Source: an uncultured virus (IMG/VR IMGVR_UViG_3300032294_002400)
Taxonomy: Duplodnaviria; Heunggongvirae; Uroviricota; Caudoviricetes
DNA length: 20,000 nt
Virus record (IMG/VR): IMGVR_UViG_3300032294_002400
Strand: one strand, 5' to 3'
Part shown: one piece after another, positions 1,898 through 20,000 of the stretch
How positions within the stretch are numbered: position 1 is the first letter of the stretch
How the letters are laid out: each line of letters opens with the position of its first letter
Position numbers and translations under genes: made by a program
Notes under the pieces: generated by a model
The model's input: the letters and a program-made list of their open reading frames with translations, nothing else
What the model was told of the DNA's origin: nothing
Databases searched by the model: none

Positions 1898-2060
1898 AAG
1901 GAGGCGAACTAGCGTTGCTTACACTACGTGGAATTGCAATGTCGACCGTAGCCTATATTACGGCAATAACAATTGGACTCTTCTCAGTATCGATGCTGTC
2001 AAGCAATGCTGCGTCAAGTCCAATCATTACAGAGGTACCAGCTCATATCAAACAGATTGA
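1776..2060 (+). CDS. Possible leader/overlapping ORF, 94 aa (uncertain)
   Basis: Has the same ACGAAAGGA SD context as the genes at 201 and 1035. It overlaps the lysozyme gene out of frame by 146 nt and has no recognisable domain. Confidence 0.25.
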   Translation: MSSLLISGHTQAVEDKRKLEERIGSKKLSEQLSLGCPIPDLRRRTSVAYTTWNCNVDRSLYYGNNNWTLLSIDAVKQCCVKSNHYRGTSSYQTD

Positions 2061-2499
2061 GCAAACAAACCCGCTGGTAGTACTAGAGGGTGCAAAGCAA
2101 CTAACTCAGCATGAGCTCGTAGAGCTACTTGCGGCAGTGGGTTTTGAGGGCAAGGCTCTTAAAACTGCATGGTCCGTTGTCATGCGCGAGTCTCGTGGGC
2201 GCCCTGTTGCCCACAACAAAAACGCCAGCACTGGCGATAACTCATACGGCCTATTCCAAATCAACATGATTGGTAGCTTAGGCGTTGACCGATTAGCTAA
2301 GTTCCAGGACAAGATTGGTATCACTAAGGTGACTGATTTATTTGACCCTGTAGCAAATGCTAAGGCTGCCTACTACATGACAGCGGGTGGCAAGGACTGG
2401 GCCTCATGGGGTCTAGGCCCTAATGCATACGACGGCGATTCGATTGAACCTGCGGTGACCAGGTGGTACACCGAATTCCCAACAAAGTCAAAGTCCTAG
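1915..2499 (+). CDS. Secreted or membrane-anchored lysozyme-like lytic transglycosylase (SLT_3-like), 194 aa
   Basis: N-terminal hydrophobic signal. Catalytic pattern AWSVVMRES…DNSYGLFQIN…LFDPVANAKAAY…W-x-x-W. SD AAGGAGG at 1898-1904 before TTG1915. Confidence 0.88.
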   Translation: MLTLRGIAMSTVAYITAITIGLFSVSMLSSNAASSPIITEVPAHIKQIEQTNPLVVLEGAKQLTQHELVELLAAVGFEGKALKTAWSVVMRESRGRPVAHNKNASTGDNSYGLFQINMIGSLGVDRLAKFQDKIGITKVTDLFDPVANAKAAYYMTAGGKDWASWGLGPNAYDGDSIEPAVTRWYTEFPTKSKS

Positions 2500-2507
2500 G
2501 ACAGGAA

Positions 2508-2522
2508 TACTATTACACCATG
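2508..2522 (+). promoter_or_regulatory. Probable leaderless promoter (-10 TACTAT, 6 nt, ATG)
   Basis: TACTAT at 2508-2513, then TACACC, then ATG2520. Confidence 0.45.
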
Positions 2523-3014
2523 GACGAACTAAATACTGAACATATCGAACCTGCGGCTGTCGCAGACGAGGTCCCTGCTGTAGAAGCAGAGGCTGTCATC
2601 GAGGCGCCTGCAGTTGTAGACGAACCTGCACCTACACCTGAGCCTGAGGTAATCCCTGAGGTAATCCCTGAGGTTGTACCTGAACCTGTAAAGGTTGAGG
2701 AGCCTAAGGCACACAAGCCTGAGGCTGTATACTCTGTCAGTGGCAATGGCATAGACGAAGTGCTTCTAGCAAATTGCATCTACAAAAATGTATATGCTCG
2801 CAAGTCTCTATCTGTTCATCATCTACAACGTCGTCTAGCTGAACTTGGTTTCAATGACGCTAGCTCTGATAAAGATGGTTGGCTAGGAGATGAGACTGTG
2901 TCTGCTATTAAAAAGTTTCAAGCAAGCAAAGGCTTAGAAGAAACTGGGTCTATTGATGCTACAACATTGACTAAGATCTTTGAAGGAGATCACAATGTCA
3001 AGGTAGTACTCTAA
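2520..3014 (+). CDS. Peptidoglycan-binding (PG_binding_1) protein with a Pro/Glu-rich N-terminal region, 164 aa
   Basis: VHHLQRRLAELGF…DGWLGDETVSAIKKFQASKGLEETGSIDATT is the classic PG_binding_1 pattern. Start moved from 2463 to ATG2520 to avoid overlap with the upstream gene. Confidence 0.85.
   Translation: MDELNTEHIEPAAVADEVPAVEAEAVIEAPAVVDEPAPTPEPEVIPEVIPEVVPEPVKVEEPKAHKPEAVYSVSGNGIDEVLLANCIYKNVYARKSLSVHHLQRRLAELGFNDASSDKDGWLGDETVSAIKKFQASKGLEETGSIDATTLTKIFEGDHNVKVVL
2644..2688 (+). repeat. Coding tandem repeat, 12-bp unit CCTGAGGTAATC (PEVI PEVI PEVV PE)
   Basis: cctgaggtaatc cctgaggtaatc cctgaggttgta cctgaa. Confidence 0.8.
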
Positions 3015-3037
3015 GCCTAATAAACAAAAGCTTAAAC

Positions 3038-3082
3038 AAAGGAAGACTGGTTGGTGCTAAGGCATCAGCCAGTCTTCTTTTA
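3038..3082 (+). terminator. Strong intrinsic terminator, possibly bidirectional
   Basis: GAAGACTGGTTGGTGC-TAAG-GCATCAGCCAGTCTTC is a 16-bp stem with 2 G-U pairs, followed by TTTTA and preceded by AAAG. Confidence 0.85.
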
Positions 3083-3270
3083 TATTGCAACAGACATAGG
3101 CTATAGGCTGCAACAAATAAAATAAAACAATTTCTTCTAAATTATTTCTTAAAGATTGTTTCTCGCTCGTAAAATGAAAAAAATAGTTGGAGACGTTTTT
3201 GAAAGTGTCTCAAAGTATACGAATCCCTTTCTCACGCCAAAGCCATTTTAACCAAAAGGTACTGTTTCTG
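3083..3270. other. AT-rich non-coding spacer between the accessory and head modules
   Basis: A/T tracts (AAATAAAATAAAACAATTT, GAAAAAAAT), short repeats (TGCAACA x2, ATAGGCT x2) and no credible ORF. Confidence 0.7.
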
Positions 3271-3275
3271 CTCCG

Positions 3276-3310
3276 TTTGTACACAATACTATAAGCGCAA
3301 TTTGTACACA
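3276..3310 (+). repeat. Direct repeat TTTGTACACA x2 (putative operator)
   Basis: Exact 10-mers at 3276-3285 and 3301-3310, at and upstream of the -35 position of the operon promoter. Confidence 0.65.
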
Positions 3311-3324
3311 TTTGTCCTCGAAGG

Positions 3325-3342
3325 TGATACAGTATTCTCATG
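3325..3342 (+). promoter_or_regulatory. Extended -10 leaderless promoter (TG-A-TACAGT, 6 nt, ATG) for the head operon
   Basis: TGATACAGT at 3325-3333, then ATTCTC, then ATG3340. No SD at the normal spacing. Confidence 0.6.
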
Positions 3343-3831
3343 GCGCACACACCCGACCTCCCAAAGAGCGAGGCCGAATTCCTAGCCTCCCTTTCCAAGG
3401 AGCAACTATGGCGTCGTGTAAAAGACCTCAATGATGCAGGCTGGACCCTTCAGTCTATTGCGGACGCCTTTGACCCTCCGCGCCGTCGCTCAACAATCCG
3501 CAGCTGGGTTATCAAGGACACCCCTGAGTTCGAGTTTATCACCGCGACCCCTACGCCACCAAAGCCTAAGCAAAAGTTAAGACGTAAACGTCCACCGTCA
3601 CCTGGGATTCCTGTAGATCAGCAACTTCAAATCGCGAGACTATCACCGCTGGCACGACGCTATCGCGCTCGCACAAACCCAGGGTCTGCTTCTTTCACCG
3701 CGAATACCCAGCTAACCGTCATCGCAGGAGAACTTTATCTAAAAGGTGTAACAGTTTCAGAGCTTGCCCGCGCGTCAGGAGTTACCTATCGCGCGATGAA
3801 ACGTAGAGTAGATAAGGCCAATACACAATGA
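3340..3831 (+). CDS. Double helix-turn-helix DNA-binding protein, 163 aa
   Basis: LNDAGWTLQSIADAFDPPRRRSTIRSWV and LYLKGVTVSELARASGVTYRAMKRRV are joined by a Pro/Lys/Arg-rich linker. Confidence 0.8.
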   Translation: MAHTPDLPKSEAEFLASLSKEQLWRRVKDLNDAGWTLQSIADAFDPPRRRSTIRSWVIKDTPEFEFITATPTPPKPKQKLRRKRPPSPGIPVDQQLQIARLSPLARRYRARTNPGSASFTANTQLTVIAGELYLKGVTVSELARASGVTYRAMKRRVDKANTQ

Positions 3832-4808
3832 ATGATAAAAGCAAAGACGGTATTTCTGCTGCTCCATGGCCAGAAGGTCTCTATCCTATTTCAGTAAGAG
3901 GAAAAGACAAAGACGGCGAGTGGCTTCATGGAGCTACCATGACTATTACTCCTTGCCCAAAGAATGCAGTCTTCTACGAATCGCGTCTACCTGTGCCTTC
4001 AGGAGAAATTACACTTGACAAATACGCGGTTCGTTTCGACGCGCTCGTTCCGCCAGGCGATTACACGATAGCTTTTTCGCATGACCGTGAAAGTCCAGTA
4101 GTTAAGGTGACAGTTTCAGATCCTGTTGCTCAGACGGTTCAATCACCGGGCGCGGATAAACTTCCGGTGCACTACCGTGACTCCCGTTGGGATAAGTACA
4201 TCATGAAGGAGAACTCCTATGGCCCTCTCGACATGAACGAGACGGATACGGTAATTGACATCGGCGCTCACATTGGAATCTTTTCTCGTAAGGCTTTAGC
4301 CAAGGGCGCTCGAGTTTTGAAGGCGTATGAACCGGAGTCCGATAACTGCAGACTTCTTGATCTTAACTTATCAGAATACGACTCCTCACTATGGAACATC
4401 CAACGGGCTGCGGTTGTAGCTGACGACTTCCCGTTTGTAGAAGAGCGTTACGCCAAGCTATGGATTGACGCGGCAGGTGACGGAGATGCATCTCGCACCG
4501 CCCTTCACTCGCTATATCGCAAGCGCGGTGCGCGAGTGCCAGTTCTTGTTCCTGTAGTTACGTGGTCAAGTGTACTTGCGCTCAACCCTACGGTTCTCAA
4601 GGTAGACGTTGAAGGCGCGGAGCTTACGTATGACTGGTCACTTTTATCAAAGAATACATCTATCCGCAGCCTTGCCTTAGAGTTGGAAAATGTAAAAAGC
4701 AAGACAGGCACAAAAGGCAACGTCGTAGAGGATATTAAGAAAGCAGGCTTTGTCTTGACTAACGAGTCATCAGGCTGGTCAACAGTTCAGATTTGGACAC
4801 GTAAATAA
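3828..4808 (+). CDS. FkbM-family SAM-dependent methyltransferase with an extra N-terminal domain of about 110 aa, 326 aa
   Basis: VIDIGAHIGIFS, AYEPESDN and VLKVDVEGAE are FkbM signature motifs. ATGA overlap with the upstream gene. Confidence 0.88.
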   Translation: MNDKSKDGISAAPWPEGLYPISVRGKDKDGEWLHGATMTITPCPKNAVFYESRLPVPSGEITLDKYAVRFDALVPPGDYTIAFSHDRESPVVKVTVSDPVAQTVQSPGADKLPVHYRDSRWDKYIMKENSYGPLDMNETDTVIDIGAHIGIFSRKALAKGARVLKAYEPESDNCRLLDLNLSEYDSSLWNIQRAAVVADDFPFVEERYAKLWIDAAGDGDASRTALHSLYRKRGARVPVLVPVVTWSSVLALNPTVLKVDVEGAELTYDWSLLSKNTSIRSLALELENVKSKTGTKGNVVEDIKKAGFVLTNESSGWSTVQIWTRK

Positions 4809-5551: not shown

Positions 5552-7288
5552 GTGGCACTTTTCTCTAAGGACAACAACACTAACAACCGTCCTGTCTCTA
5601 AGTCTCGCCGTATCACCGCGAGCGCTCCTCGTAATCCAAAGAAGAACTCTGCAGTTACACCTACGCCTATTCCTGGCGCTTACACAGCAGCGCCGTACTC
5701 TGCACCTCGTCCTATTACAGCCGCGGCTGTTCAAATGAAGTTAGACGATAAAGGTGAAGTTGAAAAGTTTAAGCAACGCCGTAAGGGCGGATCTACCGAC
5801 TGGCAACATGAAGCCTGGGAGTACTACGACGCCATCGGCGAAGTTAAGTACGCGTTTAATCTTGTCGCGTCCGTCGTATCGCGTATTCGTTTATACGCTG
5901 CGGCTGTTGACAATCCTGCGGAGAATCCAGTAGCTGCTCGGGACAGTGATGTCATTGACCCAAATCTTGCGGCCGCCGCAGAACGCGCATTAGCACGCTT
6001 AGACTCCGCGTACGGCGGACAAGCTGGGCTTTTGCGGGACGCGGCATTGAACTTATCCGTTACAGGTGAATGCTATCTCGTTCAATTCCCAGAGCGTAAA
6101 GGCACAGGTGTTAAAGAGTCATGGGACATTCGCTCAACTGATGAATTGCAACTTGACGCAAAGAACCAATACACAATTGTTCCGCGCCGTGACGTTTTAG
6201 CGTCTGGCTCATCAGGCCCTTCACAGGGATACAGACTCCCTAACACGGCGTTCGTTGGACGCATCTGGAGAGCTCACCCACGCTACTCCGAAGAGGCTGA
6301 CTCTTCAATTAAGGGCATCCTTGATCTTTGCTCTGAACTTCTTCTCCTCAACAGAACGTTTCGCGCAACCGCGCGCTCACGTCTGAACGCTGGAGCGTTG
6401 TACTTACCAGACGGACTTTCTGTTGCCGCTAGCGCAGACCCAGACTATCCATATGATGACGAGAACGAGTTAAACCCTGGCATCACCGCCGAGGAAGCCG
6501 CGGACGAGTTTGAGGATCAGCTCATGGACGCGATGACGACTCCTATTCGTGACGAGGACTCAGCATCCGCGGTTGTGCCACTTATTATTCGTGGACCTGC
6601 GGAACTTGGCGACAAAATTAAGCAGTTTAAGTTTGAACGCTCGTTTGACCCTGCACTTGCACAACGCGCAGATCGCGTCCTCGAGCGTATCCTCCAGGGA
6701 CTTGACGTTCCTAAGGATGTCGTAACTGGTCTAGCAAACGTTAAGTACTCCAACGCGCTGCAAATTGACGAAGCTTTGTACAAGGCACACATCGAGCCGT
6801 TAATGCTTCTCATCGCAGACGCACTAACTGTCGTCTACCTACGACCAGCGCTCATCGCTGCAGGCTTTGACGAGGCCGAGGTTAAGCGCATCGTTGTTTG
6901 GTATGACCCATCACAGGTTGCTACACGTAATGACCGTGCAGCAGATGCTGATTCAGGATTTGACCGCATGGCAGTTTCCTACGAGACATGGCGACGCGCT
7001 CACGGCTTCTCAGCTGCCGACGCACCGGACGCAAAGGAAATCGCAATTCGTCTCTTAGCAGACAAGGGAACGATCTCTCCGGAGTTTACCCAGGCTATGC
7101 TCGACGCAATCGCGCCTGAGGTTATGAACGCGGTTCGCACCGCGCAGCAGGCAAGTTCCGTAGCGCCTGTACCTCCTGAGATTCAACAGGTACTAGAGCA
7201 GGCCGCAGGAACTCCTGCTCCAGAAGCAACACCTGCAGAAGAAGAATTACCACCAGCATTACAAGAGCCGCAAGAAGGAGCACAGTAA
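5552..7288 (+). CDS. Phage portal protein (actinophage cluster-B-like), 578 aa
   Basis: WQHEAWEYYDAIGEVKY…SRIRLYAA, LNLSVTGECYL, RIWRAHPR…ADS, RSRLNAGAL, SAVVPLII and LDVPKDVVTG are motifs typical of this portal family. SD GAGGAG and a GTG start. Confidence 0.88.
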   Translation: MALFSKDNNTNNRPVSKSRRITASAPRNPKKNSAVTPTPIPGAYTAAPYSAPRPITAAAVQMKLDDKGEVEKFKQRRKGGSTDWQHEAWEYYDAIGEVKYAFNLVASVVSRIRLYAAAVDNPAENPVAARDSDVIDPNLAAAAERALARLDSAYGGQAGLLRDAALNLSVTGECYLVQFPERKGTGVKESWDIRSTDELQLDAKNQYTIVPRRDVLASGSSGPSQGYRLPNTAFVGRIWRAHPRYSEEADSSIKGILDLCSELLLLNRTFRATARSRLNAGALYLPDGLSVAASADPDYPYDDENELNPGITAEEAADEFEDQLMDAMTTPIRDEDSASAVVPLIIRGPAELGDKIKQFKFERSFDPALAQRADRVLERILQGLDVPKDVVTGLANVKYSNALQIDEALYKAHIEPLMLLIADALTVVYLRPALIAAGFDEAEVKRIVVWYDPSQVATRNDRAADADSGFDRMAVSYETWRRAHGFSAADAPDAKEIAIRLLADKGTISPEFTQAMLDAIAPEVMNAVRTAQQASSVAPVPPEIQQVLEQAAGTPAPEATPAEEELPPALQEPQEGAQ

Positions 7289-9490
7289 ATGAACCACGCC
7301 AACGTGCGCGTAGAAAAGCCTGAGGTTGTAGAGTGCCTTGCCAATACACTAGGCAACGCAGTCCACATGTACTTCAAGGCACAGGGACATCACTGGAACG
7401 TTACAGGACGCGACTTCTCACAGTTCCATGACTTCTTTGAAGAGATCTACGAGGACATTTACTCTATGTTTGATCCTGTAGCAGAGAACATGCGTAAGCT
7501 TGGAGCGATGGCTCCTTATCGTCTTGAGGATCTTATGAACCTCAGTCAAATAGACGACATGGACTGCGGCGCAGACGCGATGATGATGGTTCAAGATCTT
7601 TACGCAGCAAACAACGTAATGATCATGTCTCTTGATAATTGCTTTCAGGTTGCAACAGCTGCAAACGAGCAAGGCATTGTAGACTACATCGCCGGACGAA
7701 TTGATATGCACAAGAAGTGGCGTTGGCAGCTAGCCGCGTTCCTATCACCAACTGAAGCAGATATGTTGGGAAAATCTAAAGCTGTTCAACCTATAGAAGC
7801 AGACATGCCTTATAAGGATATGCCTGTAGTTGAGCAGCTTATGCATGACCATAACGGTTGCCCTCTATGTGGCCCTGTTGGCTGCGTATGCCCCGGCTGT
7901 GACGGTGGATACTGTCTATGCGGTGAAGATTGCCCATGCCCACAGTGCCACATCTCCATGGACATGCGAGACGAAGAGTACGACCTAATGTTTTCATACC
8001 AAGAAGAGCGTGACGAGGCAATGACAGCCGCAGGCATCATCGTTGCAGAAGAGCAAGACCTTGCAGCAGCTCTTTTAGAGATTGCCCAGAAGCACGGAAA
8101 GTTTAACGAGGACCGCACAGGTATCTGGGCAGGATACACATCTGCTGCAGAGAACGAATACAAGGAAATTGGTGTTAAGTGCATCAACTGCGTTTTGTAC
8201 GAAGGTCCTGGAGTTTGCAAGATTATTGCACAGCCAATTGAAGACGACGGCAAGTGCCGTTTTGCAGTTATCCCTGACGGAGTTGTTAAGGTTGAAGACG
8301 ACCAGATCACCGCTTCAATTGATCTTTTAGATTCTTACGACTCTTCTGAGTTTGCAGACAAGAGCCCATGCTGGGACGGATACAAGCAAGTGGGAATGAA
8401 AAAGGGCAAGAACGGAAAAATGGTTCCTAACTGCGTTCCTGTAGATGCATCCGATGACTCGGAGTTTGCAGCTAACGACGGTGAAGACGAGTGCCCACCT
8501 GCAACACAGGATATTCAATTAAATCTAAAGAATCGTCAAAACGCAATTGACAACGTTGGCTATGGCCCGTTGAATCCTAAAGAGCCTAACGAAGAATTTT
8601 GGCAGGAAAAAGCTGACAAGTGGGATACGACTCCTGAAGAAGCAAAGACAAGCGTCTGCGGAAACTGTGTCTTCTTTGTTCGCACTCCAAAGATGCTTGA
8701 GTGCATTTCATCTGGATTAGAGCAAGGTGACTCAAGCCAGGTAGACGCTGACTCAGCAATTGACCAGGCAGAGCTTGGATACTGCGAGGCACTTGATTTC
8801 AAATGTGCTGCATCTCGTACATGCAACGCGTGGGCAGTCGGTGGACCTATCACTGCAGCAAGCTCACGCCGCGCTCCAAAGAAAGACCGCATCTACGGCT
8901 CAAAGAAAAACAAGCCAGGATCTGCTGACGGATCTAAGAAGATTGTTTTCTCTGCAAAGACAGAAACAGCTTTACGCAACAAGGTAGAAGAGCACAACAA
9001 GAACGCAAAGCCTGGACGTAAGGCAACGCTTCCAATGTTAAAGGCTGTCTACCGTAGAGGCTCAGGCGCGTTCTCATCAAGCCACCGTCCAGGTAAGACT
9101 CGTGACCAGTGGGCAATGGCTCGCGTTAACGCGTTCCTAAAGCTTTTGCGCTCAGGATCTCCTGCAAATCCAAACTACAAGCAGGACAACGATCTTTTGC
9201 CTAAGGCGCATCCGAAGTCAAGTCGTGGTGAGGCATCTGTCCTACAACACGAACTTCTACAGATCGCGCTTAAGTCCGCAGACGAGTATGGCTCGCCGGA
9301 GCACGCTATCTACTCTATGGCCGAGTATTCAGGTCTTGGGTATGAGGCAATCCCTGCATTACGCGGCGCATGGCTACGCGCTGTTCGTGATGGCGAGATT
9401 CCTTTTGAGCGAGCATACTCACTTGCGACAAAGTTATATGAATCAAAGGATGCAGATTTACTTCCAAAGAAGCGTAAGGGACAGGCCTAA
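7289..9490 (+). CDS. Multidomain head-associated protein, 733 aa: Dps/ferritin + Cys-rich segment + two HiPIP-like Cys domains + CWxGY module + DUF5824-like domains
   Basis: HWNVTGRDFSQFHDFFEEIY…DPVAE (Dps ferroxidase residues), 10 Cys in 30 aa, CINC…C…GKC, CWDGY…VPNCV, CGNC…GYC…C…C and VYRRGSGAFSSSHRPG…QWAMARVNAF. Confidence 0.85.
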   Translation: MNHANVRVEKPEVVECLANTLGNAVHMYFKAQGHHWNVTGRDFSQFHDFFEEIYEDIYSMFDPVAENMRKLGAMAPYRLEDLMNLSQIDDMDCGADAMMMVQDLYAANNVMIMSLDNCFQVATAANEQGIVDYIAGRIDMHKKWRWQLAAFLSPTEADMLGKSKAVQPIEADMPYKDMPVVEQLMHDHNGCPLCGPVGCVCPGCDGGYCLCGEDCPCPQCHISMDMRDEEYDLMFSYQEERDEAMTAAGIIVAEEQDLAAALLEIAQKHGKFNEDRTGIWAGYTSAAENEYKEIGVKCINCVLYEGPGVCKIIAQPIEDDGKCRFAVIPDGVVKVEDDQITASIDLLDSYDSSEFADKSPCWDGYKQVGMKKGKNGKMVPNCVPVDASDDSEFAANDGEDECPPATQDIQLNLKNRQNAIDNVGYGPLNPKEPNEEFWQEKADKWDTTPEEAKTSVCGNCVFFVRTPKMLECISSGLEQGDSSQVDADSAIDQAELGYCEALDFKCAASRTCNAWAVGGPITAASSRRAPKKDRIYGSKKNKPGSADGSKKIVFSAKTETALRNKVEEHNKNAKPGRKATLPMLKAVYRRGSGAFSSSHRPGKTRDQWAMARVNAFLKLLRSGSPANPNYKQDNDLLPKAHPKSSRGEASVLQHELLQIALKSADEYGSPEHAIYSMAEYSGLGYEAIPALRGAWLRAVRDGEIPFERAYSLATKLYESKDADLLPKKRKGQA

Positions 9491-12400
9491 TGGAATCTCC
9501 ACTCAATAAGAAGATCCAGCGTTCACTAGAGCGTGTAGCAGCTAAGAAGAAAAAGGACAGTAACTACATTCCTGTTCTTACTCTTCGCGAACGTGTTCTA
9601 TCTCTCGTGACCGAGGCAAATGCAAACGCGCTACAGGAACGTCACATCACTCCACGCTCCGCGCTTACAGTTATGGACCGCTCTATCGAGCGCCTGTCTG
9701 CACTTAAGGGAGACGCTAAGGACTTTGCTGTTTTGCGTGAGGTTGCATCTTACATCTCAACCGCACAAAAAACATTTGTAGCTAGCGCATCAACTCATAC
9801 AGACCTATTGCCTCAGGGTCACCCTTTGTCAAGTCTCAATGCGTCACTCACACCTGAAGAATACCGCTTCAAGTACGCACAGTGGTTGGCAGCTGACCCA
9901 GACGTTTCACATAACGCACGTCCACTTGTTGCTGCGGCGTTCTCTGCGCAGCCAGGCTCACTTGAGCGAGAGCACGCGTTCATGCGCCTTAGTGTTACTA
10001 GCGAAAAAGTTCCTGGATACTTTAAGCTTGATCCAGCTCCAATCGTTGCAGCTTTCTCGTCCGGTAACTCTTCTGCGGCTCGCAGAGCTCGCGTAGCTTT
10101 ACAGTGGCGTGACAAGAAAGGCCGCTGGGTTGAAATGGGACGCGGTGCAAACTTCCGCTACCGTACATCAAGCGGATCTGTCGCGGCAGCGTCTGGTGTC
10201 TACGTTGGCGTAAGCTCGCCAAAACCAGGAGCTGCAAATCAGAGTTCAGCTGGTCTTATCCAAGTCACAGGTGATAAGAATCTTCCAGATGGCATCTATG
10301 CAGTTCAACCAAATAACGCAGAAACCTACTCTGCGCGTATTCCAGCAGAGGCATTAAAGAAAGCTGGAGTAACTCCAGGCTTGCGACCAGACCAATCTGC
10401 ATTAGGAATTCCAACTCAAGAAGAAATTATGGCTTCTCGCCAGGACGCTCCTACAGGTTGGACAAAGAAAGACGACAATACATTTACATCTGATGATAAC
10501 TACACCGTAAAGGTAACGGACGGCGAATATACTCTCTTCCGTCAAAACGCAGACGGCTCACTTGGCGACAAGGTTGGCGAAGGTGCAAACTGGGCTGACG
10601 TTAACGATCTTGCAAATAACGACGAAGAAGCGTATGATGCAGTTAAAGGCCAGGACAACTCAGCAGGTAGAGAAGAAGTTAAGGCTCGCATCCAAGGCCG
10701 CACTAAGTACAACGAAGAATTTGATCGTCTTGAAGAGCTTGTTAAAAGCGGCGTAGACCAAAACGGAAATACAGTTCCTGCAGGCTGGGAAGCAGATATC
10801 AAGCGCGGCGCGATGCCTGAGGTTGAGCGCAGAGCTATTGGCCGTGACAGAGTCTTTGGTGAAGAAGGTCTTCCTTACCTAGAGTACAGCAAGACATACG
10901 CTGATGATAACGGAAACCCTGTTACAGCTAAAGCTATGTTTATGCGTGACGGTAAGTTTTACGCTAACGATAAAGAATATGATTCATGGGACGCAGCCGA
11001 GGCTGATATTCCAAACTGGATTAAGGCAGAAGAAGATAAGCGTGATCGCAAGCTAACTCCTGTTAAGCCAGAAGAAATCAAGCTGCCTGCATTTGAAGAT
11101 GGTCCATCTGATATTGTTAACCCTTTTGAGCCAGAGCCTGCACGAGACGACAGAGCAGGTTTCTTTGATAAGGACGGAAATAGACTTGCTGGACCTCCAA
11201 GTGGAGACAGCGAAGATCGTCCTCTTACTCCTGAGCAACTTAAAAGAATATCAGACGACATTCAGATACCTGCGCTAGATAGACTAGATAAGTCTGCTAA
11301 TCCTTTTGCTCCTTCAGAAATACCAGACTATCGAGCTGGGTATTTTGATAAGGACGGCAACAGACTTATAGCACCAGACAATGTAATAAAGCCTCCGCAA
11401 GATCTTAAGGTAGGAGATGAAGTATACATCCCTAACGTTGGCTGGAGAAAAGTAAAGAATGTTTCTAAAGATGAAAGACGTGCTGAAGGCCGCAGAAAAC
11501 CAGTTTCTCTTTATAAAGTTGAATACGAAGATGAAGAAGGCAAAACTGGCACATGGAAGTGGACTCCATTTTCAGAGGATGACCAAGGCAACAAGATTAA
11601 GGGGCTCGAAACTCGCACTCCTATAGAGGAGCGACTATCGTCTTTGACAGAAGAGCAAAACAAAAAGATTGATGCCGAGATTAGAGATCTTATTAAGAAC
11701 CCTCCTGCTCCAACAGAGATGGACAAGCGAGTTGAAAAGCTTCTCCAGGAACAAAGAGCAGAGTGGGACAAGGCTAATGAAGAAAACTACGCTAGAGTCT
11801 TTGACGGGCGCATTGGAGGCGAATATGACTTCCTTGGGCCAGAAAAGACTAGAAAAGCTAAGGAAGAGTTCCGCAAGAACCTTGAAAAGAATAAAAAGCC
11901 AGACGGTAGCACTCCAACTGGCTCGATAAGCCAGCAAATTCTTGCCTTGCGAGAGTCTGACTCTGATGCTAAAATCGAAGGAACTCTTGACAATGGAGTT
12001 AAGTACACTATTTACAAGAAAAATGTGCAAGCTACTTGGCGTGGAGAAACTACGACTGTTCCTGATGTTATAACTGTCGATCTTTCTGGTAGAACTTTTG
12101 ATGCTAGACAAGCTATTAAGCAAGAGATGTTTAGATGGAATGCGACTGATAAAGTATGGCGTCGCACTCACTTAGGCATAGGTCCTTACCAATACTCTGA
12201 CCCTATGGCAATTCAAGCTACTCTTGAGAAGCTTAACGGTGGAAACAAGCTCGCTGGAAAAGAAGCTATCTTGCCATCCGCTGCAGAGATGCGTCAGCAG
12301 ATGGAAAGGAATAGCTGGACTCCAGAAATTCTTGCTAGAAGAAATGGCGTATCTGTAGAAGAGATTAACGCAATTCTAGACGGCGACGCTACAGGCAAAC

Positions 12401-15400
12401 CGTCAGGCGCAACTGGTAAAGAAATCTACGAGCGTCGTATCGCAACAGGTGATTCACTTGACAAGGTCGCAAAAGATCTCGGAATTCCTCGTGAAGAAGT
12501 TCGTCGCCTAGAAGCAGAGTACGGACGCACCCTTGACGGCGGCACCCCTGGCGAGCCTACAACTCCTCCAACTGGCGAAGGAGACTCTAGAAAGTCTTAC
12601 ACAGTTGATTTTGCATTAGACTCAGATAGTTACGATGAAATTGGTCTTGACCCCGAGAAAGACTACACTGATGAAGAAGTTGCAAATGCCTGGATTAAGT
12701 CAAAAGGTCTTGACGGTAAGGTAGAGTTTGTAAAAGCAGACAACCCTTCAGGTCAATGGCCAGAGTTTACATTTAAGATTGATGAAAACAGCAAGGACGC
12801 TTTTGCTGAAGCTTATGGATACGATTCATGGAGTGACCTCAATGAAGACCAGCAGTTTGATGAAGGTGATGGCGACGGCCCAAATGAGCCTACAACTCCT
12901 CCAACTGGCGGAGGAGAAGGAGATAACACTCCTGGTGCAGGGTTCGTAGACTACGTTATTGATCTTGCAGAAGATAATCGTGATCTAGGCAAAGACCTAG
13001 AAGAAAAACTAGACGATGATGCTGAAGAAGCTGGCATCGACCTTATGGATCAAATCTACGAGGATGCGTCAGACCGTTTTGATCTGTCACAAGATATTGC
13101 AGACAATAAGCCAGATGACATGTCTGATGATGAATTTGTCGAAGACGCAGTTGCTAAGATGCGCGAGCAGCTTTCAGACATTGTAGACGCGGCAATTGAA
13201 GAGCGTCGTTCATTAGAAGACGACGAAGAGCTTGAAGTTGATTTTGATAGAGATGCGTTTATCGACGCTGCAGCAAATCGCTTTGAAGAGCTTCTTCGTA
13301 ATGAGCTAGATGGCATGGGTGATGAAGACGGCGAAGGCCCAGGCGAACCACCTGCTCCACCATCAGGCGGAACTCCACCAAAGACTCCAAGCCCAAGTAC
13401 ACCTTCTGCTCCTGGACTCTTCTCCGAGTTTGAAGCACCAGATGGCGCTTTCAAGTTGCGCACAGCTGACTACGACCCAGAAGGTCGCGTAGACGAGCGA
13501 AGCACAGACTTTACAGATGACCCAGAGCGTCTTGCAACTAAGTTTACAGTTCAAGATCTTATTGCCGCGTTCTCTGAGGCAATCATTGGAAACTCTTCAG
13601 ACGCTGCTGTTGCTGAGATTCTTAACGTAAACGTTGATGATGATAACGAGCTAGACGCTCCATCAGAGGTCGACCTTGACGCGGACATTCCTCAGGTATC
13701 TTTAGGAACTCCTTCTGGCGCTGGACGTCTAGAGTTTAATGCAGGTGAAGAGTTCGTACCCGCCGAGGCATTGTTTAATGCGCTATGGCATGCAGGAGTC
13801 GACCCTAACCGCGTTCTAGCGAACGTATATGACTCTGTAACTGGAGACAACAAGAACCTAGCAAAGCTTATCGACGCGCAGGGTGGAACACCTTCAGCAG
13901 AAGAAGCTCAACTAGTAGATGACATCACCGCCGAGATTCGTCAAATCAAGGACGCTACTCCAGACGATGAGCCTTCAATTGCAAATCAAAAGGATGAGCC
14001 TTCTGAGGAACTTACAGGTTCACTTCTTGAAAACCTTCCAATTGACTTTGAGAATCCTGACTACTACATCCCAGATTCAAGCTCATATGTCCCATCTCAA
14101 GAAGAACCAGATGAGAATGGCTACACTGATAACCCAGAGATTCTTGCAACTGATTATGAAGAAGCAGATCTCATCATGCAGATGCTTGAAGGAATTACAG
14201 ACGGCTCAGGTGCTGCGCTTCTAAACTTTGGTGACATTACGACCGAGGTCCCCGTCGAGGCTATACGTGACGCACTTCAACTGCAAGGTATCAATACAAA
14301 CGACATCCTCGTAGATCTCAAGCGTGAATCAAACGACATGTCTGAACCAGAGTCTGATGCACCAACTCTTCAGTTGCACTCACGGATAATTAAGGATCTT
14401 GTAGAGCAAACTGGAAACACGCTTGACGATGACACTGCTGATAACATTCGCGACGCTATCAACGAGCAAGGACTTATTGATTGGTCAGAGGCAGACGAAG
14501 CAGAGATCATTGAAGCAATCATTGATGTCGCAGGACCTGGCATATTTACTCGTGAAGACAGAAATCCACGCAGATTTGGTCCTACAGCAGGAGAGCAAGC
14601 AAGCTTCTCTCCTTTCGCCGATGCACTTGAAGGAGAAGAAGACAGTATATCTCCTGAGCAAGCAGAACAACTAGACTCTTCAGCAGAAGCACTTGTTAAC
14701 TTCTTTACCGGAGGGCTTAACGGAGCTCGCGTCATTGCATATAACCCTCAAGCTGGCTTGATCGCAGCTAGCACTAAAGAGACTGATCTTGAAGGCAGCC
14801 AAATTATTTTGGCGACTGCAGAAGGAAATGTACAAACCAGCGCGATTGTTGACGAGGAATGGTTTGCGCAAGACGGCGCTCGGCTTGGCTGGGAGCCTGT
14901 GTCACAAGAAGTTGTTAACGCTATCTATAAAGAAAATGGACGCCTCTTCCCAGATACTGCAATGAGCGCTCCAATTGTGCCAGACGTAGTAGAGACAGAG
15001 CCTCAGTCAAATGAAGTTGAAATCGACTCTCCTGAAAACGTAACTCCACAGTTTAACTACCCAGGTCCTCGTGAAGCTGGGTATACTCCTAATAACGTTG
15101 TTCGTGATTCTAATGGAGTTGCAGTTGGTGCTGGTGCACGCGTGAAAGCACTAGGCGATGGGCGCACAGGAACTATTTTGGCAGTGCAAAATATCGACAC
15201 CAGAACAGGGCGCGATGCAGACTACGTTCGCGTACGGTTTGACGACGGTAAAGTTGCAGTTCGCTCTGCACGTCAGATCTTTGGAATTGAGGGCGGCTCT
15301 CCAGTAGCTGAAGGAGAAGGACCAGGACAACTTCCTCCTGCGCGACGCAACCCAATTGTACAAGATCCTGTGCAAAGATTTAACGAGCCTCCTGCCGCTG

Positions 15401-17658
15401 GAACTCCTGTTATCGCAGGTGACGGAAGTATTCCTGGAGTTAAGTTAGTAGATACTCCTGACGATATTGCAGAGCTTGCTAACCCCGACGCTAAGCAATC
15501 AGACTTCGTTGCATGGGGGCTTCGCGCTCCTGAAATCGCACGAGCTGGACGTGACAGAGCTGCTATCGAGAACATCGTAGACCTTGTAGACAAGGAAAAA
15601 GAAGCTAAAATCTTAGCAAATGACACCTCTGCCTCTCCTGAAGAACGAGATAAGGCTAGAAATGATCAAGCAGCATTAGATGCTCAGATTCAAAGGCTTA
15701 TTAGAGACGCTTTTGGAATTCGTCCAGGTGTGCAATTTGGAAAAAATAACTACACCATTGGACAATTCGCTAGAGTTAGCTATGATAAATATGCATCTGG
15801 TGACATAGAACTTTCTATAGGTTTTAGAATCCTAAATGAAAACGGCGACGACGTTGGAGAAGGTAGTCGCACTCTTAACGGCAGCGTTGTTCGAAATGCT
15901 GATGGCACTTCTACTATTAAGTGGACTGCAGTAAACAACCTTCTTAAAATTCCAAACGCAAGAGATAAGAAATCTGGGTTTGTTAATGCCTACAACAGAT
16001 ACATGGAAGACTGGTATATCGCAAACGGCTTTGAGAAAGTAAAGGTATACGCCGCAGGTAATGGGCGTGAATGGCAAGGCGGACTTGTCTGGGCTCTTAA
16101 CGGATTTAACTGGCAAGACAATCAGGCAAGTGAAGTTCCTACTATTCTTCGCCGTATGGCAAACAAGCCAGGTATTACAGATGAAGAAAAGCAGATTATT
16201 AAAAGAATGCAAGATCGCGTTGCAAAAGATAATCCAACTGGAAACTACACAGCAGACACCGTGCCTACTCCATTAGAAATTGCTCTTATCGGATGGTACC
16301 CTGGTGCAACAAGCTGGGCAGGTGCTAAGTATATGATTGGCACAAGTTGGTATGGACAAAAACGTCTTGACCCACAAGCTATTGAACAGCGTCAAGCTAT
16401 TAACTACAACCAGTCACGAGAAGCTCGTAAGCGTATCGATGGTAAGTTAAATCAAGCAGGGATTAGCCGCGAGTTAGTTCTAAAGATGAACAGTAACGAG
16501 TTTGCAGATGCTAACCCGGAGCTTGTTCCGTATCTCGATCAAATTAGAGATGTATTGAGAAATAATCGCTCGCTAGCAGTTCTTTCTCCAGCGGCTAAGA
16601 CAGCTCTTAACCGATACACTGCAGGCCAGCTTCTTAAGGGCGAAGGTCGTGAAGCGTCGTTGCAGGATATCTTCAAGCTGCGCACAGCGCTTGACGCAGA
16701 GTTTAAAGCTGACAACCCATTGGCAATCTCAAAGGAATTTGGAGTTGGAAATCAGCTTCTTGACGCGTCTTATGACGACATTGGAAGAAACAACGTTCCG
16801 GGCTTTACAATCAAAAGACTCGGAATGTATGAGTCAGGCATCAATGACACGTACATGGTGACACATAATGATTCAGGCCAGGTGTTCTTTGTAAAGAAGG
16901 ATTCATACGCTGCGCAGTATCAAATCGACGGAGCTGGTGCTGAAGTTCAAGCAGATGCTATGCTGCGTGCCTCAGGAGTTGCAGCAGGGTATGAGGCGCG
17001 TGTTAGCAACGTTGACCCAGAAATTATCGTAATGCAACGTGCAGGAGCTGGAATCCCGCTTCTTGGTGAGCCTATGACTGCCACTAACGCTATAGGAAAC
17101 AAGCTATCAATCAATCTACCGGACGGCACGACTGTTAAGGTAGATGCTAAGAACTTTATGGATCTTCTCCATACACCTGAAGATGCAGTTCGTGTGATAC
17201 TTGTAGACCTTATCATCAGCAATATGGATCGCCATAACGGAAACCTATTGCTCGCGGTTGACGGTACGGATACAGGCAAGATTCGTATCCTGCCTATCGA
17301 TCATGCCCTATCATCTTTTAGCCCTGACACTGAAGGAATGCAGTTTACAGTAGAAGAGTTATTTGATAACCGTGGCGACAATTTATACGGAATGGCTATG
17401 CCTGTTCTAACTGAACGTCTAAAGCAAGAAGAAATTCTTGATCTGTTCAGAAATGAAGCTCGTAAGATGATGATGCAGCTAGACGATCCTGCAAATCTTC
17501 CTACAGGAAAAGAACTTGACCTTATCGTTAAGAACTTTGGAAGCCTTAACGCGTATCGCGCAAAAATTCAAGAACGCATTGACTCTCTTCTTTCCCCTGG
17601 AACTGAAGGACACCAAGCGTTCTTAAGTGCACTCGATCCTAACTACTGGTCAAGATAA
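9490..17658 (+). CDS. Giant polyvalent-type protein, 2722 aa, with HTH, SH3-like, GNAT-like and C-terminal HipA/PI3-4-kinase-like domains
   Basis: Uninterrupted ORF, TAATG-coupled to the upstream gene. Kinase motifs SGINDTY, FFVKK, DLIISNMDRHNGN and ILPIDH. GNAT-like KSGFVNAY…NGFEKVKVYA…GGLVWALNGFNW. Confidence 0.85.
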   Translation: MESPLNKKIQRSLERVAAKKKKDSNYIPVLTLRERVLSLVTEANANALQERHITPRSALTVMDRSIERLSALKGDAKDFAVLREVASYISTAQKTFVASASTHTDLLPQGHPLSSLNASLTPEEYRFKYAQWLAADPDVSHNARPLVAAAFSAQPGSLEREHAFMRLSVTSEKVPGYFKLDPAPIVAAFSSGNSSAARRARVALQWRDKKGRWVEMGRGANFRYRTSSGSVAAASGVYVGVSSPKPGAANQSSAGLIQVTGDKNLPDGIYAVQPNNAETYSARIPAEALKKAGVTPGLRPDQSALGIPTQEEIMASRQDAPTGWTKKDDNTFTSDDNYTVKVTDGEYTLFRQNADGSLGDKVGEGANWADVNDLANNDEEAYDAVKGQDNSAGREEVKARIQGRTKYNEEFDRLEELVKSGVDQNGNTVPAGWEADIKRGAMPEVERRAIGRDRVFGEEGLPYLEYSKTYADDNGNPVTAKAMFMRDGKFYANDKEYDSWDAAEADIPNWIKAEEDKRDRKLTPVKPEEIKLPAFEDGPSDIVNPFEPEPARDDRAGFFDKDGNRLAGPPSGDSEDRPLTPEQLKRISDDIQIPALDRLDKSANPFAPSEIPDYRAGYFDKDGNRLIAPDNVIKPPQDLKVGDEVYIPNVGWRKVKNVSKDERRAEGRRKPVSLYKVEYEDEEGKTGTWKWTPFSEDDQGNKIKGLETRTPIEERLSSLTEEQNKKIDAEIRDLIKNPPAPTEMDKRVEKLLQEQRAEWDKANEENYARVFDGRIGGEYDFLGPEKTRKAKEEFRKNLEKNKKPDGSTPTGSISQQILALRESDSDAKIEGTLDNGVKYTIYKKNVQATWRGETTTVPDVITVDLSGRTFDARQAIKQEMFRWNATDKVWRRTHLGIGPYQYSDPMAIQATLEKLNGGNKLAGKEAILPSAAEMRQQMERNSWTPEILARRNGVSVEEINAILDGDATGKPSGATGKEIYERRIATGDSLDKVAKDLGIPREEVRRLEAEYGRTLDGGTPGEPTTPPTGEGDSRKSYTVDFALDSDSYDEIGLDPEKDYTDEEVANAWIKSKGLDGKVEFVKADNPSGQWPEFTFKIDENSKDAFAEAYGYDSWSDLNEDQQFDEGDGDGPNEPTTPPTGGGEGDNTPGAGFVDYVIDLAEDNRDLGKDLEEKLDDDAEEAGIDLMDQIYEDASDRFDLSQDIADNKPDDMSDDEFVEDAVAKMREQLSDIVDAAIEERRSLEDDEELEVDFDRDAFIDAAANRFEELLRNELDGMGDEDGEGPGEPPAPPSGGTPPKTPSPSTPSAPGLFSEFEAPDGAFKLRTADYDPEGRVDERSTDFTDDPERLATKFTVQDLIAAFSEAIIGNSSDAAVAEILNVNVDDDNELDAPSEVDLDADIPQVSLGTPSGAGRLEFNAGEEFVPAEALFNALWHAGVDPNRVLANVYDSVTGDNKNLAKLIDAQGGTPSAEEAQLVDDITAEIRQIKDATPDDEPSIANQKDEPSEELTGSLLENLPIDFENPDYYIPDSSSYVPSQEEPDENGYTDNPEILATDYEEADLIMQMLEGITDGSGAALLNFGDITTEVPVEAIRDALQLQGINTNDILVDLKRESNDMSEPESDAPTLQLHSRIIKDLVEQTGNTLDDDTADNIRDAINEQGLIDWSEADEAEIIEAIIDVAGPGIFTREDRNPRRFGPTAGEQASFSPFADALEGEEDSISPEQAEQLDSSAEALVNFFTGGLNGARVIAYNPQAGLIAASTKETDLEGSQIILATAEGNVQTSAIVDEEWFAQDGARLGWEPVSQEVVNAIYKENGRLFPDTAMSAPIVPDVVETEPQSNEVEIDSPENVTPQFNYPGPREAGYTPNNVVRDSNGVAVGAGARVKALGDGRTGTILAVQNIDTRTGRDADYVRVRFDDGKVAVRSARQIFGIEGGSPVAEGEGPGQLPPARRNPIVQDPVQRFNEPPAAGTPVIAGDGSIPGVKLVDTPDDIAELANPDAKQSDFVAWGLRAPEIARAGRDRAAIENIVDLVDKEKEAKILANDTSASPEERDKARNDQAALDAQIQRLIRDAFGIRPGVQFGKNNYTIGQFARVSYDKYASGDIELSIGFRILNENGDDVGEGSRTLNGSVVRNADGTSTIKWTAVNNLLKIPNARDKKSGFVNAYNRYMEDWYIANGFEKVKVYAAGNGREWQGGLVWALNGFNWQDNQASEVPTILRRMANKPGITDEEKQIIKRMQDRVAKDNPTGNYTADTVPTPLEIALIGWYPGATSWAGAKYMIGTSWYGQKRLDPQAIEQRQAINYNQSREARKRIDGKLNQAGISRELVLKMNSNEFADANPELVPYLDQIRDVLRNNRSLAVLSPAAKTALNRYTAGQLLKGEGREASLQDIFKLRTALDAEFKADNPLAISKEFGVGNQLLDASYDDIGRNNVPGFTIKRLGMYESGINDTYMVTHNDSGQVFFVKKDSYAAQYQIDGAGAEVQADAMLRASGVAAGYEARVSNVDPEIIVMQRAGAGIPLLGEPMTATNAIGNKLSINLPDGTTVKVDAKNFMDLLHTPEDAVRVILVDLIISNMDRHNGNLLLAVDGTDTGKIRILPIDHALSSFSPDTEGMQFTVEELFDNRGDNLYGMAMPVLTERLKQEEILDLFRNEARKMMMQLDDPANLPTGKELDLIVKNFGSLNAYRAKIQERIDSLLSPGTEGHQAFLSALDPNYWSR
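11119..11367 (+). repeat. Intragenic duplicated peptide NPF…RAG(F/Y)FDKDGNRL, 180 bp apart
   Basis: Copies at 11119-11187 and 11299-11367. TTTGATAAGGACGG is shared at the nucleotide level. Confidence 0.85.
12553..12910 (+). repeat. Perfect 25-bp direct repeat GAGCCTACAACTCCTCCAACTGGCG (EPTTPPTG)
   Basis: Copies at 12553-12577 and 12886-12910, 333 bp apart and in frame. Confidence 0.9.
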
Positions 17659-17673
17659 TAGGAGAAATACGAA

Positions 17674-18273
17674 ATGATAAAAGTAATCCGCGCATTTGAC
17701 ATGACTGACAACGCTCATGCGTTTTCAATCGTGGCAACTGATAAAGGCTTTAAGTATATTTTCCCGAATACTGAAGGTGAGATCTTTGACCCAGGTAAGA
17801 GAGTTCAGCTTCTGTTAGACACTGTTAAACAGGATCGTAAGTCGTACACGGTTGACGACTACCTTGGTCTTGCTCAGTTTAATCTTAGCAACTACTACTT
17901 CTCTGAACCATTTGAGGAGCCTAGCGAGAAGATAGCCATGAAGAGCGAAAAGCTTAAAATGGAAAAAGACAAGGAAATAAGCAAAGCAGAAGAAGAGTCA
18001 AAGAAGTCAGTTGGTGTAGCTCTTAGATCTGTTGACATTGAGCAGGTTCTTTTAGATTTCCCAGAGCTTCTCGAGCAACTTAGCTCAGAAGATCCTGATG
18101 TAGAGATCACTGCGTCTGGCATGACAGAGCTAGTATTTGCGGCTCTAGGCTCCGTTGATCCTAATGGACCTAATGCATGGCTGTTAGATTATATGGATGG
18201 CCAGACTGCTGAAGGTGTAGTCGGCGATTTAGTGTTTGACCCTCAGCCAACCGATGAGACAGGGAAGAAGTAA
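17674..18273 (+). CDS. Hypothetical acidic protein, 199 aa
   Basis: SD AGGAG at 17660-17664. Sits between two head-associated genes. Confidence 0.85.
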   Translation: MIKVIRAFDMTDNAHAFSIVATDKGFKYIFPNTEGEIFDPGKRVQLLLDTVKQDRKSYTVDDYLGLAQFNLSNYYFSEPFEEPSEKIAMKSEKLKMEKDKEISKAEEESKKSVGVALRSVDIEQVLLDFPELLEQLSSEDPDVEITASGMTELVFAALGSVDPNGPNAWLLDYMDGQTAEGVVGDLVFDPQPTDETGKK

Positions 18274-18274
18274 T

Positions 18275-20000
18275 ATGGATATCGTAGGAAAGAATGGATC
18301 ACAGGTTCTTTTCTCTAACGAGAGCTCTGGCGTAATCATTGATGTCAATGAAAACACGGTAGTCGACTCTGGCCCTCTCTCAACTCTACTAGCCTCAGCC
18401 AAGTGGAGTGATAAAGACGTAGAAATCACCGAGACTATCGCAGACCTGGCGCAGGCAGCATTGACGACCTTAGACGTAGCGGTTATTGCCGCAGGCAGTC
18501 GCATGTATACCATTCCAAAAGGTGCTCAAGAGGAAGCTAAGCGCGGTCTAGAGTGGCGTAAGGAATATAACCGTGGTGGAACATCGGTAGGCGTCAACTC
18601 TGCGCGTACACTTGCTAAGGGCGGACAAATTGGAATTGAAAAGGTTCGCCACATCGCTAAGTACTTCCCTCGTCACGAAATTGACAAGAAGGCGCAAGGA
18701 TACGAGCCTGGAGAAAAAGGCTTTCCTTCACGTGGACGTATTGCTTGGGCTCTATGGGGTGGAGACGCTGCATGGCGTTGGGCAAGAGCTATCGTCGAGC
18801 GCGAGAACAAGAAGGCTCTACGCGCTGACGGGTATACAGACCAAGGCTACGAAGACGACCTCTATGACTACGCAACTGATACTACCTACAGTGCGGAAGT
18901 TGATGCGTTTAAGGACGCTTCTGCGACCGAAATCGGAGCAGTTGAGTTTATTGCCCGTATGCGAATGGACGGCTCAGGGATCGACCGCCTATACAAAATT
19001 GACGAGGCTTACAACGTTGCAGTATGGGACGCAGGCTTCTGGCACGTGCTTCCAGGTGTCGACGCGGACCTTGCAAGTTACGACCTAGCACTTGACGGAG
19101 AGTCATACGGAGTTGAAGCAACTCACGTAGAAATTGATGCTGAAACTGCCATGTTCCTTAGCGCTTGCTTCCAGGAAAACCCTGACCACTATGTTTCATT
19201 GTTCGACATCAACTACGACGAGGCAGAGATGATTCTTGCTGCCGCGTCTGAGCTTGATTACGAGATGATTGACAGAGTAATGGTTGCGGCTGTAAATCCA
19301 GAGGACGGAGTGTACACTCCTGAAGAGCGTGCTAAGAACGTTCAAAGACAAGTCCGTGATAAGACAGGTAAGTTCGCGAAGATGGGTTCACGCGTAGTTA
19401 TCGGCGGAGACACTCAAAAGGGGGCAGGAAACATTATTGCACTTGACCCTGCAAAACAAAGCGTCCGCGTGCAGCTAGACTCTGGTAGCATCGTTGATGT
19501 TCCAGCTAAGTCTACAGAGCCAGAGGCAACCGTTGCTCCTACATCTTCAACACAAGCACCAATCGAGTTTGAAGGACTAGATACATCAGGAATTCTTGGT
19601 GAGCCACGTGTTCCAATTGATCGTCCTAACGCAAAGATCCCTGGAACTCTTCCAGCACTTACACCTGAAGACCTTGGAAAAGTTATGGGCGACTGGCCTG
19701 CTTGGGTTAAGGCGCAACGCGACGCGTTTAATGCTTCAAAGAACGCAACACCAGACGCACCTAAGCCTATTAAGACAATTACAGGAAAAGATCAAATTCC
19801 TAATATTGAAAAGCCAGCATACTTAACTGAGCTTGAAAAGCTAACAGGCGCTACACTAGAGTTTGATCCATATAAGCACCCGTTGCTAGAACCTTTCCTA
19901 AACAAGAAGGTTCAAGGATCTGACGGTAAGTATTACTACCCAAACAAGTCGTACTACCAACCAATTATTCGTGGAAGTGCTGAAAAGGCTGGTAAGTCTA
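18275..20000 (+). CDS. Large head-associated multidomain protein (N-terminal part, truncated by the window end)
   Basis: Manual translation from ATG18275 shows no stop before 20000 (it is absent from the ORF track because it is unterminated). It contains EEAKRGLEWRKE…RGGTSVG…YFPRHE…PSRGRIAWALWGGD, a domain often fused to phage portal, MuF or prohead-protease proteins. It also contains RDKTGKFAKMG and an SH3-like segment. Confidence 0.85.
   Translation, partial: MDIVGKNGSQVLFSNESSGVIIDVNENTVVDSGPLSTLLASAKWSDKDVEITETIADLAQAALTTLDVAVIAAGSRMYTIPKGAQEEAKRGLEWRKEYNRGGTSVGVNSARTLAKGGQIGIEKVRHIAKYFPRHEIDKKAQGYEPGEKGFPSRGRIAWALWGGDAAWRWARAIVERENKKALRADGYTDQGYEDDLYDYATDTTYSAEVDAFKDASATEIGAVEFIARMRMDGSGIDRLYKIDEAYNVAVWDAGFWHVLPGVDADLASYDLALDGESYGVEATHVEIDAETAMFLSACFQENPDHYVSLFDINYDEAEMILAAASELDYEMIDRVMVAAVNPEDGVYTPEERAKNVQRQVRDKTGKFAKMGSRVVIGGDTQKGAGNIIALDPAKQSVRVQLDSGSIVDVPAKSTEPEATVAPTSSTQAPIEFEGLDTSGILGEPRVPIDRPNAKIPGTLPALTPEDLGKVMGDWPAWVKAQRDAFNASKNATPDAPKPIKTITGKDQIPNIEKPAYLTELEKLTGATLEFDPYKHPLLEPFLNKKVQGSDGKYYYPNKSYYQPIIRGSAEKAGKS

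Follow-up and report, generated by a model that had tools for sequence, protein, structure and literature searches.

A head-specific tetrapeptide in the head module of an uncultured actinophage, probably the recognition site of its prohead protease

Here, we analysed a stretch of 20,000 nucleotides (nt; 'the window') from the uncultured lake virus IMGVR_UViG_3300032294_002400 and found that its head proteins share a short motif, which is real, is under selection at the protein level and is specific to head proteins. This motif, (A/P/S)-[LIVM]-[TV]-A-[ASG]-(G/A), is probably the recognition site of the phage's assemblin-like prohead protease, with a predicted cut after the alanine. The window is the final 20 kb of a contig of 129,276 bases, whose 123-nt terminal overlap indicates a circular genome, and it contains the head module of this 129-kb phage. 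Three WhiB-like open reading frames (ORFs) and the nearest cultured relatives (Actinomycetia phage DSL-LC01, Microbacterium phages Pumpernickel, Big4 and A3Wally, Arthrobacter phage Atuin, Gordonia phages Forza and GodonK) point to an actinobacterial host. A terminase gene (phrog matches) is followed by genes for the portal, a Dps fusion of 733 amino acids (aa), a 2722-aa giant protein, a 199-aa protein and a 1528-aa protein encoded across the circular junction; then come the major head protein, whose N-terminal region is long and acidic, a 290-aa protein, the major tail protein and an adaptor. An initial annotation, made from the letters of the window, had noticed ITA(A/S)-type tetrapeptides at domain junctions of five consecutive head proteins and proposed that all five are polyproteins, cut in the prohead into a plug-in set of internal proteins.

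The nine tetrapeptides of that annotation were all recovered in frame at their positions. The five window proteins contain ITA[AS] five times, compared to 0.21 in shuffles, and the wider pattern [ILVM][TV]A[AS] ten times, compared to 1.9 (p about 0.002); these figures are post hoc since the motif was derived from those same proteins. Genome-wide counts were based on greedily called ORFs of at least 60 aa, and residue shuffles over whole proteins and within 50-aa blocks served as null. In the six head proteins (6415 aa) the wider pattern appears 19 times (3.2 expected), while the other 142 ORFs (33,599 aa) hold 24 (21 expected, no excess) and 21 tail or other structural ORFs hold 10 (9.8 expected). 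The suggested enrichment of head over non-head proteins is thus present, and the accompanying caveat of similar tetrapeptides outside head genes is also justified, at about background level. The downstream protease and scaffold-capsid genes, in which the motif had been expected, served as held-out set: the capsid protein and the out-of-window part of the last ORF contain nine copies of [ILVM][TV]A[AS] (1.4 expected, p = 0.001) and no strict ITA[AS] (0.15 expected), which argues for the wider pattern as the real motif.

Relatives show the same distribution. From viral contigs, we took the 80 best portal loci (of 299) and the 80 best protease loci (of 224), as well as 14 annotated regions from 13 cultured phages. 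With proteins dereplicated at 70% identity, gene classes assigned automatically and near-identical kin of the window included, observed and expected counts were 13 vs 2.8 for portals, 162 vs 59 for cargo proteins, 214 vs 30 for proteases and 93 vs 22 for capsid proteins, compared to 23 vs 20 for upstream and 67 vs 58 for downstream genes; head classes were hence enriched 2.8- to 7.3-fold and flanking genes 1.15- to 1.18-fold. The head block was enriched in nine of nine cultured phages (p = 0.0025 in eight, 0.01 in one), while chosen tail and other genes of the same nine were not (p = 0.21–0.98). The pattern [ILVM][TV]A[ASG] had been fixed after viewing Atuin, Forza, GodonK and Big4; the mycobacteriophage PG1 and phages Barb, TurkishDelight, Pureglobe5 and Quhwah were unseen at that stage, and their capsid proteins are only 25–29% identical to that of the window phage. 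Hosts of the enriched phages span Mycobacterium, Gordonia, Microbacterium, Arthrobacter and Streptomyces. Homologues in cultured phages amount to 877 records for the portal and 649 for the capsid protein, both protease domains are also homologous, and the motif sits at matching places; Rosebush, for instance, has the same portal and capsid sites.

Residue preferences in head proteins, numbered around the predicted cut, are L/I/M/V at P3, T/V at P2, A only at P1 and S/A/G at P1', flanked by A/P/S at P4 and G/A at P2'; non-head proteins have no such P3–P1' profile. Among all 24 permutations of residue order the true order ranked first, and the reversed order gave 0.69. The 583 sites are spelled by 463 different 12-nt words, hence selection acts on the peptide. 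A DNA-level repeat as cause was rejected on the same count; an artefact of composition or helix formation was rejected by the shuffles, the order permutations and the control proteins. A T4-type motif ending in Glu was discarded as well, since Glu at P1 reached 0.9-fold compared to 3.9-fold for Ala with P3, P2 and P1' fixed. Two further observations concern variants and positions of the motif. An EFA/AFA variant, perhaps a relaxed site, often precedes PCW, DUF5824-like and LPDGS modules that lack the strict motif (window 8340-8480 and relatives), and an RNA ligase gene in the head block of Barb (L172:7541-8134) and the portal of TurkishDelight (L173:2887) both start with MTAA.

The proteins and sites of the window, all on the + strand, are:
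5552..7288: portal protein, 578 aa, with a predicted 57-residue leader (phrog_776, expectation value (E) 4e-108)
5612..5623: ITAS at residue 21 of the portal leader, a secondary or chance site; kept in 1/21 homologues
5714..5725: ITAA at portal residue 55, the predicted leader cut; motif within 8 aa in 20/21 homologues
5861..5872: LVAS at portal residue 104, in the conserved core, probably structural and uncut; 15/21 homologues, flank identity 0.83
7289..9490: 733-aa modular protein with a Dps/ferritin domain, a Cys-rich stretch, two four-Cys modules, a DUF5824-like module and a C-terminal domain
8021..8032: MTAA ahead of the first four-Cys module; strict motif in 5/12 distinct contexts (shuffle 0.4)
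8306..8317: ITAS ahead of the short PCW and the CPPATQD modules; 6/10 and 19/22 contexts, respectively (shuffles 0.2 and 0.8)
8849..8860: ITAA ahead of the DUF5824-like module; 4/6 distinct contexts (shuffle 0.2)
9490..17658: giant protein, 2722 aa, a putative internal cargo with a predicted 187-residue leader and a C-terminal PI3/4-kinase-like domain
10042..10053: IVAA at the end of the giant's leader, 22 aa ahead of an RDxxG[RK][FW] word; 9/12 distinct contexts and alignment
17674..18273: 199-aa protein; relatives append a CPPATQD module behind the motif, and 13 hosts of this type carry the module
18275..20000: N-terminal 575 aa of the 1528-aa modular head-maturation-protease protein, which continues over the circular junction at G000 C1 6-2984
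18482..18493: VIAA ahead of a phrog_2859-like module; 9/17 contexts, 13/33 by alignment
19280..19291: MVAA ahead of a module with an RDxxGKF word; 23/35 contexts, 22/33 by alignment

Portal and giant look as if they were trimmed at their leaders only, judged from where their sites lie. The portal is 65–78% identical to those of DSL-LC01 (78%) and Pumpernickel, and the motif is close to the portal start also in PG1, Rosebush, Barb, TurkishDelight, Pureglobe5 and Quhwah. From the pair of portal sites proposed initially, ITAA 5714 stands, while ITAS 5612 is probably not a junction site. In the giant, IVAA does end the N-terminal region, as had been read from the sequence. Among 33 giants with intact start, the first 250 aa hold 63 sites (6.5 expected) and the remainder 25 (30 expected), and 29 giant fragments that lack the N-terminus hold 28 (29.2 expected); a giant cut into many pieces was thus rejected. 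Its kinase-like match (PF00454, E 1.5e-5) is below the curated cut-off. We examined 21 of 59 giants of relatives: eight have ART, DRAT, UvrD, PIF1 or kinase matches, one has a probably compositional match and 12 are without match.

The Dps and protease fusions resemble genuine polyproteins. In the 733-aa protein, Pfam matches comprise Ferritin (E 7e-14) and DUF5824 (E 6e-7). Its four-Cys modules, to which Pfam gave no match, are labelled iron-sulfur-like after an annotation in DSL-LC01. Across relatives, the Dps, both four-Cys and PCW modules are found as part of the post-portal protein, on their own, appended to the 199-aa protein or within the protease fusion. The Dps domain itself (window 7289-7760; L140, L142) is in some relatives a protein of its own, while in others it opens the post-portal protein or is embedded in the protease fusion; for a Dps, association with the capsid is unusual. 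To compare modules in different surroundings, only upstream sequences less than 50% alike were counted and the strict motif was sought within 35 aa (shuffled means 0.2 to 2.6). It lies upstream of CPPATQD in 19/22 contexts, RNRG in 27/45, YTPE in 23/35, protease domain 1 in 15/29, YTIP in 9/17, the giant's RDxxG module in 9/12 and PCW in 6/10, with 5/12, 4/6 and 3/5 for others. Internal homology starts with the motif at −30 to +5 residues numbered 73/272, compared to 32 at random (maximum 49 in 1000); this signal, which is weak at homology ends, indicates that the tag marks module starts. A module carrying its own upstream tag could be exchanged among head genes. Cargo proteins hold 49 copies and protease fusions 56 copies of a second word, [RK][DG]xxG[RKQ][FW], vs 2 copies in other genes; in the window it is found at 10108-10128 and 19355-19375, often lies 10–30 aa after a predicted cut and is possibly a DNA-binding or encapsidation tag.

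Conservation at junctions in homologous phages, the second expectation of the initial annotation, is therefore seen from the portal (20/21) to the modules (up to 19/22). The proposed plug-in architecture is borne out for the Dps fusion and the last ORF, in which modules are reshuffled and the motif is kept upstream; the idea that all five ORFs are polyproteins cut to pieces is not supported. Portal and giant have a leader site only, and ITAS 18106 of the 199-aa protein is probably no junction: it lies inside a conserved domain, where 4/12 homologues have ITAS and 3/12 have ITAD.

The capsid protein carries sites at residues 224, 254, 298 and 332, kept in 34, 36, 34 and 35 of 37 sequences, respectively. 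A cut at the last of them would leave 321 aa, a length within the range of mature chains with the HK97 fold, although the structural model did not fix this boundary. When solved structures were searched by sequence, neither the capsid protein nor either alignment gave a useful match. We also observed that in most relatives VTAA/ATAA stands four residues before the capsid C-terminus (G000 C1 5040-5072), which may be trimmed there, and that the acidic leader (G000 C1 3105-3690) contains many EAS/ELS words.

The candidate enzyme is the last ORF, encoded between portal and capsid genes as is known for prohead proteases. Its outside part matches phrog_18402, head maturation protease (E 3e-60), and it contains two tandem prohead-protease-like domains (L001:855-1930, G000 C1). 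VIAA and MVAA precede modules of this ORF, as had been proposed. Domain 1 matches Peptidase_S78 in 34/37 homologues (best E 1.7e-6), and its top Foldseek rows, all weak, are T4 gp21 followed by the proteases of Epstein-Barr virus, Kaposi's sarcoma-associated herpesvirus and human cytomegalovirus. Domain 2 carries the phrog_18402 match; its neighbours in the Atlas, at low recognition, are Mu-like, S80 and S77 proteases. Both domains have a His and a Ser, possibly catalytic, that are invariant in 37 sequences and kept in most of the distant phages. Domain 2 was found in 10/10 cultured phages checked and domain 1 in 7/10 within the regions examined. Forza, GodonK and Barb appear to retain the second domain only. 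As the three phages without domain 1 in those regions still have the motif, domain 2 would be the likelier enzyme to read it. The motif after domain 2 (LVAA) is kept in 33/33 sequences and that before it in 25/33. The protease gene of DSL-LC01 (L083:35306-40225) is annotated as three ORFs; the tail at the first break looks out of frame, possibly a sequencing frameshift.

Taken as a cleavage site, the motif suggests the following course of maturation. Portal, scaffold-capsid protein, protease fusion and cargo proteins would co-assemble into the prohead, where the protease would free itself at the sites flanking domain 2 on both sides. It would also digest the capsid scaffold at four conserved sites, the last of which ends at capsid residue 334, so that 321 aa remain, remove the leaders of portal and giant cargo, and separate the modules of the Dps and protease fusions. 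Predicted products in the window phage are a portal of 56.8 kDa, a capsid protein of 33.9 kDa, a giant of 278 kDa and pieces of the Dps fusion of 28, 10, 20 and 23 kDa; in Rosebush, gp15 would shrink from 71 kDa to about 45 kDa and the portal would lose its first 26 residues. The analysis shows the enrichment, conservation and position of the motif, the selection on the peptide and the protease homology; cutting as such, the position of the bond, the active domain and packaging are inferred. Several observations weigh against this reading. Homologous sites are not independent counts, and some copies lie within folded cores (portal residue 104, capsid residue 410). Portal and giant of Atuin are without strict site. 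Within 35 aa upstream, the strict motif is rare or absent for LPDGS (1/29), QPRD (0/27), kinase (0/11) and Dps (0/11; mostly N-terminal) and also scarce ahead of ETSD (7/37) and the C-terminal domain (1/3). Homology ends gave a weak signal, 48/337 compared to 35 at random (maximum 53). For the window phage's own protein, the Peptidase_S78 match is under the curated cut-off; the best Foldseek E is 0.04 with a model of mean predicted local distance difference test (pLDDT) score 48, confident for domain 1 only, and domain 2 is identified by a PHROG label and a low-recognition Atlas match. With a pLDDT of 47, the capsid model left the start of the HK97 fold unplaced, and its Foldseek rows are weak.

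Could the motif be recognised without being cut? As an uncut docking or capsid-targeting tag, it might bind the scaffold, the capsid interior or an inactive protease-like domain; its confinement to head proteins near module starts, the copies in conserved cores and the presence of two protease-like domains, one of which could be the binder, would all fit. We nevertheless regard such a tag as unlikely, as the capsid scaffold ends in a stack of four copies and others flank the protease domain, at places that need cutting, and as the invariant Ala between small residues resembles assemblin sites. Cleavage by a host protease is conceivable because the phage enzyme as cutter is itself a prediction, yet the motif does not change among phages whose hosts are Mycobacterium, Gordonia, Microbacterium, Arthrobacter and Streptomyces, non-head proteins have no excess of it, and it co-occurs with protease domain 2 in 10/10 phages checked; we give this possibility very little credence.

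The least credible explanation is that the motif has no function and arises from Ala-rich linkers, helix ends and shared ancestry. The relatives do share ancestry, and 24 similar tetrapeptides occur in non-head ORFs. However, this is largely refuted: local 50-aa shuffles, order permutations and tail-protein controls yield no excess, and the motif persists where upstream sequences are less than 50% alike and in phages whose capsids are 25–29% identical. Hence, recognition by the phage's own prohead protease is the reading we favour.

How does the predicted system relate to known ones? In T4 (gp21), phiKZ (gp175) and SPN3US (gp245), a single head protease processes the portal, the capsid, internal proteins and its own chain at a short P3–P1 motif, and T4 and giant-phage propeptides carry repeated sites (PMC10052503, PMC5694885). 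The window phage has, as a pattern, its motif at the same propeptide ends. The initial comparison with T4 therefore stands in kind and fails in the motif, which ends in Ala as in herpesvirus assemblin and not in Glu as in T4, phiKZ and SPN3US (A-x-E in the latter). Moreover, 13/14 SPN3US sites remove N-terminal propeptides, whereas sites of the window phage also separate internal mobile modules, and cuts in those systems were proven by mass spectrometry. Pseudorabies assemblin sites read YLQA-T and VQA-S (PMC4498786); like the R and M sites of pUL26, the motif has an aliphatic P3, Ala at P1 and a small P1', with the bond position assumed. Self-release from a precursor, predicted for the window phage, would be shared as well, and Foldseek weakly indicates a related fold (PMC5694885). 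In herpesviruses, the scaffold lies at the protease C-terminus with a nested scaffold gene, whereas the acidic scaffold-like region of the window phage is the capsid N-terminus; P2 restricted to Thr/Val, two protease-like domains and many substrates are further differences. The order portal, protease, scaffold-capsid fusion and the S78 match are shared with HK97/D3-type delta-domain processing (PMC12749128), which lacks the 10–15 kb of cargo genes between portal and protease and the motif shared throughout. The system would work like T4, SPN3US and herpesvirus maturation, yet it belongs to none of them, differing from each in one feature.

The cargo also recalls polyvalent proteins (Iyer et al. 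2017, PMC5512222), described in the passages available as large multi-domain head-region proteins with ART, kinase or other enzymatic domains that are proposed to be packaged, some of them including assemblin-like peptidases proposed to process them. As far as these passages go, the likeness lies in several unrelated domains per head-region polypeptide, reshuffled among relatives, and in enzymatic effector domains (kinase-like in the window; 8/21 giants of relatives); a cleavage motif is a difference, as those passages contain none. Profile scans of the window proteins showed no MuF or MPTase match. Packaging and delivery of the cargo to the host are suggested by gene position. The terminase–portal interval (window 1915-4808) holds an SLT lysozyme-like gene, a peptidoglycan-binding protein, helix-turn-helix proteins and an FkbM-type methyltransferase.

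A 2022 preprint states that it is not possible to predict where the delta domain is cleaved in capsids of actinobacteriophages (10.1101/2022.09.09.507160). In the literature covered, with subscription papers and bioRxiv supplements outside it, we found no description of the motif or of cut sites, and virion proteomics of cluster B could exist. Gel-band mass spectrometry of Rosebush, in the tables available (PMC7150772 supplement, Tables S1 and S2), lists mostly serum albumin and no termini.

If true, the proposed recognition site would supply the missing maturation sites for a large and well-studied group, the cluster B mycobacteriophages and their kin, and predict exact mature protein ends. 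A phage protease with herpesvirus-like Ala specificity would tighten that evolutionary link, and the upstream tags would account for the swapping of head cargo domains. More tentatively, and with some doubt on our side, more than 600 cultured and many lake actinophages may share a herpesvirus-like cutting code that would make the head-gene block a plug-in bay for cargo: any upstream-tagged domain (often with RDxxG[RK][FW] behind the tag) would be loaded into the prohead and released free, and the sequence might reveal which proteins a mature virion holds, among them Dps, iron-sulfur-like modules, kinases and ADP-ribosyltransferases.

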